DNA from: a virus
Lineage: Duplodnaviria > Heunggongvirae > Uroviricota > Caudoviricetes
DNA length: 64,000 nucleotides
Virus record (IMG/VR): IMGVR_UViG_3300013288_000004
Span: 191,360 to 255,359 of that record
Reading direction: 5' to 3' (one strand)
Shown here: piece by piece, positions 1 through 4,258 of the stretch
Numbering within the stretch: position 1 is the first letter of the stretch
Layout: every line of letters begins with the position of its first letter
Position numbers and translations under genes: made by a program
The notes under the pieces: generated by a model
What the model was told of the DNA's origin: nothing
What the model saw: the letters and a program-made list of their open reading frames with translations, nothing else
Databases searched by the model: none

Positions 1-304
1 TGTCACCCTGCCTTCTATATTTTGGCATACAGTAAAATACTCTTAATTGAAAATATTCAGTATTAACAACTGTAATAATATCTCCACTTATGATGCCAGT
101 AACCATGTCATCGTTTACTATTCCTAAAGTTAGGAACTTTCCGTCAACATGTTCTATGATGGGCTTCTGTCTTTCATATCCTGTCAATTTTCCATTATCT
201 TTTAACCATTTCATGGAATCTTCAATCTGAGAAGATTGATAATTATTTAATGGAGTTGTTCTAGAGGTCATTTCTGACAGAATATTTAAATCATTTAATT
301 TCAT
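1..304 (-). CDS. GNAT-like acetyltransferase, partial (runs off the window start)
   Basis: Hand translation from ATG at 304: MKLNDLNILSEM...FYCMPKYRRQG; the ending resembles GNAT motif A (V.P.YRRQG). Not in the ORF track. Confidence 0.5.
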   Translation of the reverse strand, partial: MKLNDLNILSEMTSRTTPLNNYQSSQIEDSMKWLKDNGKLTGYERQKPIIEHVDGKFLTLGIVNDDMVTGIISGDIITVVNTEYFQLRVFYCMPKYRRQGD

Positions 305-309
305 ATTGC

Positions 310-1140
310 TCACATAAATTCATTTTTAAAATCCTCTAGCGTTATTACTGTGACACCGAGTTCTTGAGCTTTCTTGTATTTCGAAGAGGCTGAATCAACT
401 GATGCACAAATCAAATGAGTTGTCTTCTTACTAACTCCCGATCCAACTTTACCACCATTCATTTCAATGAAATTCTGTAATGTTGAATCTCTGAAACCAG
501 TTAATACAACATTTAAATGTGAAAGATCAGATGATACCGCTTTCTTCTCCACAAGATTGACATAATCTTTTAATTTTGTCAATAGTGCGAGAGCATCATC
601 AATTCCGGACATAATCATTTTAGCCGTAGTAGTATCAAACCCAACCATATTAACAATATCATCCTCGGTTAAATTCTTGATCGCATGTATACCATTGCAT
701 TGGTTTAGTAACATCTTAGATTTTCTAACACCAAATCCAGCACCAAAATATCTCAGCGATCCCAAAAACTCTTCTGGTGGAAGTTTCTGTAACTTATTGT
801 GTAAACTGGTGTGAATCTTCTTACCATTGATGCCGATGATCTTCATCCATTCTGGCTCAAGTAGATCAAGCAAAAATACAATAATTTCTTCGTATGGCAA
901 ATGGTATAACTGATACGCTTCAAACATAGACTTCAACGTTGCCTCTTTCAAAAGGTCAACCTTAAATGTTTCGAAGAATGCCAAGACTTGTTCGAATTTT
1001 ACCTTTGGGTGATTGTTATGATTATTTACAATAATTTCTACCCCTGACTGATTCCATTGCCAGTTTCCTTCTCCTAAGATTTCGTTAATAGAGTCGTTGA
1101 AATATTTTTCAAATTTATCCATAAAATTTTTTATACCCAT
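310..1140 (-). CDS. ligA: NAD-dependent DNA ligase, C-terminal part (HhH repeats + BRCT)
   Basis: HhH-like GAGFGVRKS and VGFDTTTA; BRCT VVLTGFRD...GGKVGSGVSKKTTHLI...SKYKKAQELGVTVI. Confidence 0.9.
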   Translation of the reverse strand: MGIKNFMDKFEKYFNDSINEILGEGNWQWNQSGVEIIVNNHNNHPKVKFEQVLAFFETFKVDLLKEATLKSMFEAYQLYHLPYEEIIVFLLDLLEPEWMKIIGINGKKIHTSLHNKLQKLPPEEFLGSLRYFGAGFGVRKSKMLLNQCNGIHAIKNLTEDDIVNMVGFDTTTAKMIMSGIDDALALLTKLKDYVNLVEKKAVSSDLSHLNVVLTGFRDSTLQNFIEMNGGKVGSGVSKKTTHLICASVDSASSKYKKAQELGVTVITLEDFKNEFM

Positions 1141-1155
1141 AAATAGATTCTAGGT

Positions 1156-1184
1156 ATTCTAAATCTTTTTTCTGAATATGTCAA
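1156..1184 (-). promoter_or_regulatory. sigma70-type promoter for the ligase C-terminal gene
   Basis: Minus strand TTGACA-N17-TAGAAT; the -10 box ends 15 nt before the ATG at 1140. Confidence 0.7.
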
Positions 1185-1208
1185 ATGGAAAACCAAGAAT
1201 GACTAAAA

Positions 1209-1994
1209 ATGACTAAAAAATTAACAAACGAAGAATTTATAACAAAAGCAAACAAAATTCATAATAATAAATATGATTACAATAAAACAATATATGACGG
1301 CTATTATAACAAAATTATAATAGTATGTCCAATACACGGGGATTTTACACAAAAGCCAGCAGATCATTTAGGAGATGCTAACGGATGTCAAAAATGTAAA
1401 AGTGTTTCACTTGCAACACAGCAAACTTTAACAAGAGAAGAAGTTATAAACAGATGTAATAGAGTACATAATTTTAAATATTTGTATGACGATATGGTGT
1501 ATATCAAAAATAATATAAAAATCATTATAACTTGTAAAGAGCATGGGAAGTTTCTTATGGTCCCAGCGAAACATTTTATGGGCAGAGGATGTCCAATATG
1601 TTCAAAATCATTCTCCAGTGGAGAACTAAAAGTTAAACAGATATTAGAAGAATTACATATAGATTATAAAATGAATAAACAATTTCCGGGGTTGATAGGA
1701 GATTACAGACCCCTAAAATACGATTTTTATTTGGAACAATTACATCTAATAATAGAATATGATGGTGAATTTCATTCTAACTATAAATGCGCTTTTGATG
1801 CCAAAAATTTATCAGAAAATGAAATGTACAGACGTTTCTTAAAAATACGACGATACGATCTCATCAAAAATAAATATTGCGAGGATAATAATATTCCATT
1901 ATTACGTATTTCATATAAAAAATATTCTTATAAATTGATTCGCAAAGAAATTATAAATTTTTTAAATTTAAACGGGACTACTTATTACACTTAA
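1209..1994 (+). mobile_element. Free-standing homing endonuclease (CxxH-GCxxC Zn-binding repeats + Vsr/PD-(D/E)xK-like nuclease)
   Basis: Repeats CPIHGDF..HLGDANGCQKC and CKEHGKF..HFMGRGCPIC; C-terminal KYDFYL..LIIEYDGEFH..DLIKNKYC..PLLRI. Sits antisense inside ligA. Confidence 0.85.
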
Positions 1995-3089
1995 TATTTG
2001 TGGTATAACCGATCCAGCTTTTGCAACAATTACTTTAGCACCCGGCATTATTTTATTGTCATATATAAATCTTGCGTTGTGACCGGTAGCGTATGTCACA
2101 GTTGACCCCTCCATCTCTGTTGGTACAATTTTAACCTTTGGTTTAAGTAAACCCCCCTTAGACAGTTCCCAGAGGACATCGACAACCGAGACTTCGCGAT
2201 AAGCATCCTTTGAAAGATTCTTATATTTGACAGAATGTTCTGGATTTAGCGATGACGAATTCGACTGCAAAGAAATATTCTTGTACGATTCTGTAGTAAG
2301 AACCAAACCGTCCAGCATATATTCTGATTTTTCTTTTCGATCTGCAACCATCTTACCAAGATCGGCATCGTTGAGTTTGTCAACCCCGACCATTTGATAT
2401 GCAACTACGGAAAATCCGTACTTCTTGAGCAATTCCAACTCTTCGGACTTCTTAAGATTGCTTACACCATCGACAATTTCATATGCGACCACTTCGAAAT
2501 CATTTAACACATCTTCTGTTGGGATTTTTCTATTAAGAATACCGGCGACCATGTTACGGCTGTTCTTGAATTCGTTTGCATACTTATATTCAAAGATAGA
2601 GTTCTTAATGATCACTTCGGCTCTGACTACAAGATCATCAGGATTTAAATAACCAACATCTGCCGTTTTTGGTACATTTGGAATAAGCTGAATATTTCTT
2701 GTAATGTCCGCACCCTCTGAACCATTACCCCTAGAGAATGCCTGTGCAAACTTACCATCACGATAAACTAATAGACACGAACACCCATCTAGTTTATCAG
2801 ACGAGATAACTTCTTTAACATTATATTTTTCAATCCAATTGAGAATATCATTATCATCATAAACTTGATTCAATGAACCCATTGGATATGGTAACGGGAC
2901 TTTCCCACCACGAACATCCGAGCCGACACCAGTGAAATACTGATTGGATGGATCTAGCAACTTTAATTTGTTTCTAAGATTCTCATATTTGTCATCGTCA
3001 AGAACGTCATCAGTGACTGAGGTATTGAAATATAATTCATCGTATTTCTTTAATTCTACTACTAATTGTGCAATGACATCCATAAACAT
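1968..3089 (-). CDS. ligA: NAD-dependent DNA ligase, N-terminal part (adenylation + OB domains)
   Basis: SDKLDG active-site motif, SRGNGSEGADIT, RNMVAG, LDGLV, and OB-fold end ATGHN...AKAGSVIPQI. Confidence 0.93.
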   Translation of the reverse strand: MFMDVIAQLVVELKKYDELYFNTSVTDDVLDDDKYENLRNKLKLLDPSNQYFTGVGSDVRGGKVPLPYPMGSLNQVYDDNDILNWIEKYNVKEVISSDKLDGCSCLLVYRDGKFAQAFSRGNGSEGADITRNIQLIPNVPKTADVGYLNPDDLVVRAEVIIKNSIFEYKYANEFKNSRNMVAGILNRKIPTEDVLNDFEVVAYEIVDGVSNLKKSEELELLKKYGFSVVAYQMVGVDKLNDADLGKMVADRKEKSEYMLDGLVLTTESYKNISLQSNSSSLNPEHSVKYKNLSKDAYREVSVVDVLWELSKGGLLKPKVKIVPTEMEGSTVTYATGHNARFIYDNKIMPGAKVIVAKAGSVIPQILSVISSPV

Positions 3090-3131
3090 TCCTATGATTT
3101 TTGTGTATCATAGCAGATGTTGGTGCACCGT

Positions 3132-3764
3132 TCAATCTCTTGCAGCTTGCACGAAATCCTTAACTTTTATTGGATCAAAGTCGTAGAATGAACTTGATAT
3201 TCCAGTTGCTACCAATGCATGTGTTATATAATTCTTATAACTATGAATGTTCTCTGGTGTCAATCCGCTTGCTAGTGCTAGCTTGGGAAAGTGTTCCAAA
3301 TTCTGCATTTTTTCTAATGATGCAGCAACTCCGGTTGCGCTGCCAGATGTTGTTGGTATTCTATTTTTGCTAAGAATTGTTTCGCCAGTGGCTATAAAAT
3401 CCACATCTTTCTTTTGATATTTAAAAGCAAATGACTCATATATTTCCATGCTCTTTTTGTTCGTAAGAAGTTCAATCGGTTGATCATATCTCTCTGGTAT
3501 TAGATTATCTGTCCAAATCATATCAAAACATTCATAATGATTCACTAATCCAACCATGAATTCAGTAAAAAGAAAATTTATGCCTATTTTCTTTTCTGGG
3601 TAATTTTCTTTCAACTCTCTACAGACCGATGGTAAAATTGATTCAGCGTCTGGATTGTCCATGTTTATTAAAAAGACGCCATCGCATCCATTCCCAAAGA
3701 CGATTTCAGCATTCTTAAACGCTGCATCTTTTGTTGAGAAATGTATTACTGGTAATATTATCAT
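3132..3764 (-). CDS. BtpA/SgcQ-like TIM-barrel protein
   Basis: LPVIH start, DGVFLIN, IGINFL, TTSGSATG, LASGLTPENI, ALVATG. Confidence 0.65.
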   Translation of the reverse strand: MIILPVIHFSTKDAAFKNAEIVFGNGCDGVFLINMDNPDAESILPSVCRELKENYPEKKIGINFLFTEFMVGLVNHYECFDMIWTDNLIPERYDQPIELLTNKKSMEIYESFAFKYQKKDVDFIATGETILSKNRIPTTSGSATGVAASLEKMQNLEHFPKLALASGLTPENIHSYKNYITHALVATGISSSFYDFDPIKVKDFVQAARD

Positions 3765-4258
3765 AAAGATTTTGCGAAATTATCGTTTATTGGTTCGTCG
3801 TACTCTGATTCTATCCCAATGATACCAAGCTTGTCTAGTAAACTCTGGTCTGGCACTTCTCCATCATAATCATATGATAATGTTATATGTGGTTTATATT
3901 CTGGGAACTTTTCTTCAACATCATATTGTCCGACGATGTCAGAATGTCTTGCATGTAAATCATCGCAGTCTAATTCCATAACCAAACATTTCGATCCGGG
4001 ATTTTGGGAATTGTCAAACAAAGTGAAACCTTTTGGTTTAGCCTTGTAACCTGCTGGATTTTTCGCGGTGAATCCATCTAAATTCTTTTTATCTGAATAC
4101 ACCAATGTGGAATGTAATTTATCTTGCGGGATTGGATTCTTTAACTTTAATTCTGCCATCAAATCCATTATTCTCTTTTTAGTATCATCATCAAATCTAA
4201 CACCTACATATGTCCCTGCTGGCATTTCTTTGTTATAGTAAATTTCTGATAGTTTCAT
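3761..4258 (-). CDS. acb1: T4 57B/Acb1-like 2H phosphoesterase (anti-CBASS)
   Basis: GTYVGVRF, NPIPQDKLHSTLVYS, LVMELD..LHARH, YKPHITLSYD and EYDEPI are co-linear with the T4 57B sequence as I recall it. Confidence 0.85.
   Translation of the reverse strand: MKLSEIYYNKEMPAGTYVGVRFDDDTKKRIMDLMAELKLKNPIPQDKLHSTLVYSDKKNLDGFTAKNPAGYKAKPKGFTLFDNSQNPGSKCLVMELDCDDLHARHSDIVGQYDVEEKFPEYKPHITLSYDYDGEVPDQSLLDKLGIIGIESEYDEPINDNFAKSL

Follow-up and report, generated by a model that had tools for sequence, protein, structure and literature searches.

The window analyzed here is a stretch of 64,000 nucleotides (nt) from a tailed phage (Caudoviricetes), positions 191,360 to 255,359 of the IMG/VR virus record IMGVR_UViG_3300013288_000004. 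The record is a complete genome of 306,759 bp with direct terminal repeats according to IMG/VR, and its G+C content is 36%. On the minus strand, near the start of the window, the NAD+-dependent DNA ligase of this phage is encoded by two open reading frames (ORFs) with an antisense endonuclease ORF in between. The layout is real and the split ligase is probably functional. We consider it likely that this is a ligase gene in pieces, made by a mobile homing-endonuclease cassette, and that the two polypeptides re-associate non-covalently. The halves would be translated separately, bind each other and be active as one ligase. The strongest argument that they are meant to work together is that the cassette supplies a promoter, a start codon and a leader peptide for the downstream half. 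The original prediction, made from the letters of the window, had proposed a non-covalent two-subunit ligase. Comparison with relatives and co-folding support its two-polypeptide core, but the arrangement is less novel than was implied, as the ligA/ligB pair of T5-like phages is a precedent.

Organization of the split locus

The upstream half of the ligase (N-half) stops a few residues past the OB motif G-x-V-I-P, with the C-terminal end ...GSVIPQILSVISSPV*, and the downstream half (C-half) resumes at the WxWN...VE module. This places the break at the boundary between OB and the zinc finger-equivalent module that precedes HhH. In alignments with the intact ligases of Xanthomonas phages XacN1 and Xoo-sp13 and Stenotrophomonas phage RAS14 (43–46% identity to the halves), and with the intact allele P0016 of 623 amino acids (aa), no ligase residue is missing at the break. 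The ligase domains are spread over two ORFs and do not form a one-polypeptide LigA; together with the endonuclease ORF between them, the two ORFs are collinear with one intact homolog. No other DNA ligase of either cofactor class is found in the 306,759-bp genome, which gives a single hit for PF01653 and none for PF01068.

From the stop codon of the N-half to ATG 1140, the first in-frame start of the C-half, the distance is 827 nt. On the ligase strand all three frames of this interval are closed, with 13–20 stops each. All observed details of the original prediction hold here. The half with the adenylation and OB domains ends right after the OB motif; the half with HhH and BRCT has a new Met and a TAG in frame four codons upstream (window 1150–1152); and the gap consists of the antisense endonuclease ORF plus the 68 nt (1141–1208) between ATG 1140 and the endonuclease start. 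The new Met itself needs adjustment. The ATG at 1140 is present, but the true start of the C-half is likely the second ATG at 1122 (MDKFEKYF...), because relatives have a Shine-Dalgarno-like AGGG or AGGA at the place of ATG 1140. With the start 18 nt further on, the mRNA expected from the C-half promoter would have an untranslated leader of about 27 nt. The N-half likewise has two candidate starts, and the second, ATG 3083 (MDVIAQ...), is likely the true one because relatives conserve it. The AGGA before this ATG is conserved in the related loci L008 and L010, a similar AAAGGA is found in L014, and the public gene call for the N-half (P0015) also starts at 3083. The end of the N-half overlaps the end of the endonuclease gene tail to tail (Table 1). 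The same kind of 3′-to-3′ overlap, 12–53 nt long, occurs in all six split loci in which it was measured.

Although split inteins that fracture a phage gene and have an endonuclease gene between their parts are known (Dassa et al., PMC2677866), it is hardly credible that the present halves are rejoined, whether through splicing of the RNA (a group I intron carrying an antisense ORF), split-intein trans-splicing or ribosomal bypassing. A group I or group II intron was rejected on the Rfam results: no intron is found in window 1–3600 at E ≤ 5, where the hits are solely chance matches to small nucleolar and long non-coding RNAs, and none in five related loci at the gathering threshold. Moreover, the spacer outside the ORFs is just 30–79 nt in the split loci. 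A split intein at the break was rejected as well. The residues added at the junction, a tail of about 5–10 on the N-half and a leader of about 20 on the C-half, are too few for intein halves, and Pfam detects no Hint/intein domain in the proteins of the locus. An interval of 827 nt is far over any known bypass, and the C-half has its own promoter and ATG. With the closed frames, these results bear out the earlier claim that neither intein nor intron is present.

Table 1. Features of the split ligase locus, in window coordinates
Feature	Position	Strand	Details
N-half: Ia, nucleotidyltransferase and OB	1968–3083	minus	371 aa; 373 aa from the in-frame upstream ATG 3089
C-half: leader, Cys-less WxWN β-hairpin module, HhH region and BRCT	310–1122	minus	270 aa; 276 aa from the in-frame ATG 1140
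Free-standing homing endonuclease gene	1209–1994	plus, antisense to ligase	261 aa
3′-to-3′ overlap of N-half and endonuclease	1968–1994		27 nt; last 8 codons and stop of the N-half are the reverse complement of the last endonuclease codons
Left flank: reduced identity to P0016 (probable co-conversion tract) and cassette-type tail ...VIPQILSVISSPV	1971–2186	minus	
Sigma70-like promoter TTGACA-17-TAGAAT pointing into the C-half	1156–1184	minus	inside the 68-nt gap 1141–1208
Promoter-like site TTGAAC-17-TATGAT with TG, upstream of the N-half	3107–3135	minus	9/12 consensus, extended −10; weak
Leader peptide MDKFEKYFNDSINEILGEGN, cassette-borne amphipathic helix	1063–1122	minus	replaces the ..PKMP.. 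linker of intact alleles

Domains and conserved residues of the two halves

The N-half contains the NAD-ligase adenylation domain (PF01653, 3e-32) and the OB domain (PF03120, 9e-16) by Pfam, and its match to TIGR00575 starts at model position 3. It keeps the family-invariant motifs: the KLDG lysine K97, R118/G119/G121, E156, D258/G259, K286/K288 and G357/P361. An alignment of 70 sequences including that of the window has invariant columns at K97 and at motifs Ia, III, IV and V. The Ia residues Tyr18, Asp30, Tyr33 and Asp34 are invariant or nearly so in the same alignment, and we take them to be the equivalents of the residues that contact nicotinamide mononucleotide in E. coli LigA.

In the C-half, Pfam recognizes BRCT (8e-13), while its own HhH models stay below threshold on this copy. 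The HhH and BRCT region is matched by the LigA models TIGR00575 (positions 415–651) and PRK07956 (positions 500–661), and the C-half also matches phrog_3869 over positions 403–653. Family-invariant residues are retained here too, for example G97/N99/G100, G127/G129/G131/R133/K134 and G209-F-R-D212. The first 50 residues contain no cysteine, and OB is not followed by a Cys4 zinc finger. This holds for the XacN1-like ligase family as a whole, in which a cysteine-free WxWN...VE β-hairpin module lies between OB and HhH and replaces the Cys4 finger of bacterial LigA.

Expression signals and leader supplied by the cassette

Most split alleles share an N-half tail of the type VIPQI(L/V).V.., whatever their ligase backbone, and this tail is coded on the reverse strand of the endonuclease 3′ end. 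On the other side of the break, the promoter pointing into the C-half agrees with the consensus at 11 of 12 positions in the window. A promoter with 9–11 of 12 positions is found at the same place in all seven split loci, its −10 hexamer ending 23–35 nt before the ATG, and in six of the seven no more than 2.7% of random 75-nt windows from that locus hold as good a match. A Shine-Dalgarno-like sequence precedes the C-half ATG in most split alleles. For the N-half, a GCTATGAT-like element lies upstream in L010 and L014 as well, a weak basis for a promoter of this half.

The leader follows roughly the pattern [FY]-[DEN]-x-[YWF]-F-x-x-[SKM]-[ILM]-x-x-[ILV]-x-G...W.WN in all eight stand-alone C-halves, and it has no counterpart in 100 of 103 intact homologs. 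Promoter, ATG and leader are kept across cassettes whose endonucleases are only 40–50% identical. Such conservation would make little sense if expression and correct docking of the C-half were of no importance. Three proteins of intact length (P0029, P0057 and P0126) lack the endonuclease and have the tail joined in frame to the leader. Such alleles may be scars left when the endonuclease was lost, or may represent the type that was invaded first; the closest match to the tail of P0029 is that of a split allele, P0031.

An origin of the leader as a duplicate of the ligase's own N-terminus was considered and rejected as unsupported. Both contain ..YFN.. and MAFFT aligns them, but Smith-Waterman scores against shuffled leaders give p = 0.03–0.8, and the positions of the best match differ among six loci.

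Predicted assembly of the halves

Co-folding of the two chains, a check proposed with the original prediction, gives an ipSAE interface score of 0.72, compared with 0.34 for the best control. The family alignments used as input were built by us. The ipSAE mark applied is reached by 58 of 80 solved complexes and by 2 of 110 mismatched pairs. Contacts agree between runs to at least 89%, and the partner pLDDT is at least 84. The contacts of lowest predicted error connect leader residues 4, 7, 8, 11 and 12 and hairpin residues 23 and 27–31 with OB residues 305–313 and 336–347. In the co-fold, the contacting leader residues 2–4, 7–8, 11–12 and 15–16 make up its conserved hydrophobic face. The model supports binding of the halves and is not proof of it; since structures have been solved in this enzyme family, resemblance to the intact enzyme may account for part of the score.

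The predicted docking also bears on whether the halves act independently, the N-half as a minimal ligase on its own and the HhH-BRCT protein in a separate DNA-binding or scaffolding role. Every catalytic motif lies in the N-half, ligase domains are modular, and BRCT domains serve as protein-recruitment modules in other contexts. Even so, we regard independent action as quite improbable. The conserved leader is predicted to dock on OB, and the C-half stays co-located with the N-half and keeps the invariant residues of the ligase family. In LigA, 19 bp of DNA are held in a clamp formed jointly by the nucleotidyltransferase (NTase), OB and HhH domains, with HhH positioned by the module that follows OB (PMC5052709).

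Mobility of the cassette among relatives

The 119 best ligase homologs were called split or intact by length. About 16 are stand-alone N-halves (366–393 aa) and 103 are intact; for five of the 16, the endonuclease was looked for on the contig itself. The arrangement in three parts, in which each half is a complete ORF, is found in L008 (a 315-kb IMG/VR phage), L009, L010, L011 and L014/L015, and in L013 it is cut by the contig end. The C-halves of the split relatives are 46–90% identical to that of the window.

Split and intact alleles are closely intermixed. The split L011 is sister to the intact XacN1 (support 100/99), and L012, which is uninterrupted at the junction of OB and the C-half, is 81–84% identical to the split L009. 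A ligase tree of 70 rows was built using residues 1–300 alone; the 13 split rows are scattered in it, with at least 11 changes of state, and they cluster no more than with shuffled labels. Near-identical sister pairs of a split and an intact allele are window/P0016, P0069/P0072, P0031/P0044 and P0032/P0046. One clade (P0047, P0055, P0059 and P0081) is split throughout, with branch lengths of 0.17–0.4. The cassette and the ligase also differ in their nearest relatives. The window ligase is nearest to that of L010 (83/90%), whereas the window endonuclease is 74% identical to that of L014 and 46% to that of L010. The DNA breakpoints coincide with the ends of the endonuclease ORF. Two endonuclease lineages have been swapped independently of the ligase backbone.

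The comparison with P0016 is the closest one. The window ligase is 90–100% identical to this allele over residues 1–300 and 100% identical over the last 110 residues or so, and the C-half is 87% identical to the C-terminal part of P0016 over its whole length. Toward the insertion, identity declines on both sides, to 53% and 32% (with steps of 80, 67 and 53% on the N-side). Intact alleles of the P0016 type read ...VIPFLTKTIKSVEPKMPP... at the junction. These gradients are probably co-conversion tracts, the signature expected of homing. As the window ligase is near-identical to P0016 except toward the insertion, the invasion of this phage lineage is recent. Judged from these sequence comparisons, the endonuclease is clearly mobile, and the split is a recurrent and, in this phage, recent cassette invasion, not a fixed old feature.

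Two relatives show further irregularities. P0033, a stand-alone N-half of 393 aa, still has the ..EPQLPP.. linker, and its break lies some 12 residues downstream of that in the other split alleles; a separate event, another insertion or a frameshift, may account for it. In L012 (1–330), the ligase ORF does not start until within the adenylation domain, and the preceding 327 nt, which are not ligase sequence, hold a 65-aa antisense ORF with Cys/His pairs. Either the gene has a second insertion site here, or this 5′ oddity is an artifact of the contig.

Is the split ligase functional?

The same mobility raises the question of whether the ligase has been inactivated. A selfish endonuclease would then have broken a dispensable gene, the LigA of the host would do the work, and the halves would be intact since the invasions are recent. 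Several observations weigh against a functional split enzyme and in part favor this alternative. Far from the junction, the window halves are 97–100% identical to the intact P0016, so the insertion is recent. The changes of state are many and independent; intact alleles prevail, and split clades are seldom deep, which would also fit a mildly harmful, short-lived state. The LigA of the host could cover for a dead phage ligase. Finally, the plus strand of the gap holds no promoter for the endonuclease itself with at least 9 of 12 positions ending before 1209.

The reading frames are less decisive than they seem at first. None of the eight stand-alone C-halves or the roughly 16 stand-alone N-halves contains an internal stop. 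Between the window and L008, the nonsynonymous divergence (dN) is 0.13–0.17 for the halves and 0.57 for the endonuclease; the proportion of synonymous differences (pS) is at least 0.75, and with synonymous sites saturated no dN/dS ratio is given. With invasions that are recent and repeated, neither the intact halves nor this comparison says much about selection after the split. Intact ORFs and low dN between split relatives largely reflect selection while the gene was whole.

Nevertheless, we judge inactivation unlikely. A selfish insert indifferent to ligase function would not need to carry and conserve a promoter, an ATG and an amphipathic leader across such divergent endonuclease lineages. 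The frames free of stops, for what they are worth, also speak against it. The P0047/P0055/P0059/P0081 clade has remained split over its whole depth, T5-like phages retain the same split, and the split ligase is the only one this phage has.

The endonuclease and its fold

The endonuclease matches phrog_559 (1.6e-48), phrog_9084 ('homing endonuclease') and phrog_7140 ('intron encoded nuclease'). It has two N-terminal Cys/His zinc ribbon-like repeats, similar to DUF723, and a C-terminal nuclease domain with E183-Y-D185-G-x-x-H189. In the alignment of the endonucleases, the Cys/His columns and Glu183, Asp185 and His189 of the E-Y-D-G..H motif are invariant. This genome has one copy, and homologs are present in more than 1,000 phage records, often with several copies per genome.

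Searches of the Protein Data Bank (PDB) at the sequence level, with the protein or its profile, give nothing meaningful, and the Pfam match to DUF2726 is 0.0097 only. The AlphaFold model has a mean pLDDT of 83. With it, the top three distinct Foldseek matches in the PDB are 3r3p, the catalytic domain of I-Bth0305I, and 1cw0/1vsr (Vsr). The E-value of about 0.02 is weak, the probability is 0.99–1.00 and the identity 10–20%; for 3r3p the TM-score normalized by the target is 0.73. The model suggests that the fold is Vsr-like or I-Bth0305I-like and that the label 'HNH endonuclease' of phrog_559 is probably wrong.

Proposed mechanism and significance

In the arrangement that we favor, two polypeptides forming one ligase, the cassette would be an antisense Vsr-like endonuclease gene whose 3′ end gives the upstream half its tail and stop codon. 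It would also bring a sigma70-type promoter, a ribosome-binding region, an ATG and about 20 leader codons for the downstream half. Insertion would take place just past the OB domain and replace the short ..PKMP.. linker, with the intact allele being cut and the cassette copied in during repair. We infer this cut-and-copy step because of the co-conversion gradients and the scattered presence and absence of the cassette. Polypeptide 1 (Ia-NTase-OB, 371 aa) would contain all catalytic motifs and be able to self-adenylate with NAD+, while polypeptide 2 (leader-hairpin-HhH-BRCT, 270 aa) would be the DNA-clamping part. The leader helix and the WxWN hairpin of the C-half would pack on the OB domain of the N-half and stand in for the severed linker, and re-association would rebuild the NTase-OB-HhH clamp around nicked DNA.

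A broader interpretation is that the cassette spares its host gene: stop, promoter, start and docking helix would keep the invaded ligase working as a heterodimer. There would have been many invasions, P0029, P0057 and P0126 would be remnants after loss of the endonuclease, and the fixed ligA/ligB split in T5-like phages would be what an earlier round of this process left at the same hotspot. This interpretation as a whole is tentative, its chances being somewhat short of even.

If the halves do work together, the position after OB is a natural and repeatedly used split point of NAD+-dependent ligases, with a short portable docking helix, which would shed light on assembly of the ligase clamp on DNA and aid the design of split-ligase tools. 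One family would show all stages of the homing cycle in a coding gene: the empty site, the invaded and split gene, the endonuclease swap and possibly an in-frame scar. The cassette would be a selfish element that limits its own damage by bringing expression signals and an assembly peptide. It would also plausibly explain where the two-gene ligase of T5-like phages, long annotated but unexplained, came from. For annotation, the names of both ORFs should mark them as subunits of a single ligase; the PHROG label of the insert probably needs the correction discussed above.

Genomic neighborhood

A gene for transfer-messenger RNA (tmRNA) lies about 2.25–2.6 kb before the start of the window, on the minus strand (G000:C1:188776-189111; L022 2777–3112). 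In Rfam it scores 103 bits with beta_tmRNA (gathering score 84) and 98.5 bits with tmRNA_permuted. Relatives have a tmRNA about 3 kb downstream of the ligase (L008 8520–8859, L010 7189–7413 and L014 8763–8984). The best match is to the betaproteobacterial model, which hints at the host group.

A gene of the Acb1 family (PF23474), at window 3761–4258 on the minus strand, lies upstream of the ligase at a distance of one to two genes, as do its counterparts in L009, L010, L014 and L021. Downstream of the ligase, some relatives have Acb2/Tad1-hairpin and Tad2-like genes. The ligase thus lies in a counter-defense neighborhood.

Comparison with known systems

Phage T5 has the nearest counterpart. 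Its ligA (T5.116, 323 aa) and ligB (T5.117, 259 aa) encode the same enzyme family with the same break point. T5 LigA ends ...GGVIPCIVERVYD just past the OB motif, at the position of the end ...GSVIPQILSVISSPV of the present N-half. The ligB gene has its own promoters in a short gap of 202 nt, much as the C-half here has its own promoter. In contrast to the present locus, the T5 gap holds no endonuclease gene. T5 LigB has no leader and opens directly at a Cys4 zinc finger, which is absent from this phage family. The T5 split looks fixed, whereas the present one is polymorphic. T5-like genomes with at least 80% of the ligA/ligB locus number 431, and nearly all of the 40 listed annotate two ligase genes. 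The T5 genes are mentioned as 'subunits A and B' (PMC3632103). Biochemistry of a two-subunit T5 LigA/LigB ligase was not found in the limited literature searched, where the mentions are at the level of annotation, and this absence is not proof.

For gene splitting by a free-standing endonuclease, nrdA of Aeromonas phage Aeh1 is instructive. This gene is split by mobE, and the tails created by the insertion are essential for the activity of the split NrdA (Crona et al. 2011, PMC3045599). As in the present locus, an essential DNA-metabolism gene has become two ORFs around a free-standing homing endonuclease, with no intron or intein and with new tails at the break. The leader of the C-half parallels the mobE-derived tails of split NrdA. 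The present case differs in that the enzyme is a ligase and not a ribonucleotide reductase, and the endonuclease is predicted to be Vsr-like, is antisense and overlaps the upstream half. It also has population-level signs of repeated invasion and alleles with tail and leader fused in frame.

The Vsr-like endonuclease family was introduced with the 'fractured genes' of Dassa et al. 2009 (PMC2677866), phage DNA-metabolism genes broken by a free-standing endonuclease, where the insert sometimes brings gene-control elements. Most fractured genes carry split inteins, unlike the ligase here. An SbcD-like gene without an intein is split by a Vsr-like endonuclease and has extra residues on both sides of the break (PMC2677866). 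The ligase in that study is Felix01-like with a split intein, and both its family and its site differ from the present ones. Compared with I-Bth0305I (PDB entry 3r3p), the best fold match together with Vsr, the N-terminal DNA-binding part of the present endonuclease consists of paired DUF723-like zinc-ribbon repeats. No paper on a ligase split by a free-standing endonuclease without an intein was found in the limited literature searched, and this absence is not proof.

The split ligase is thus not new in kind: the ligase of T5 is already split at this site, and endonucleases of this sort are known to split genes. What sets it apart is the host gene and the site, the antisense endonuclease that overlaps the upstream half, the absence of an intein and an unusually complete population picture.

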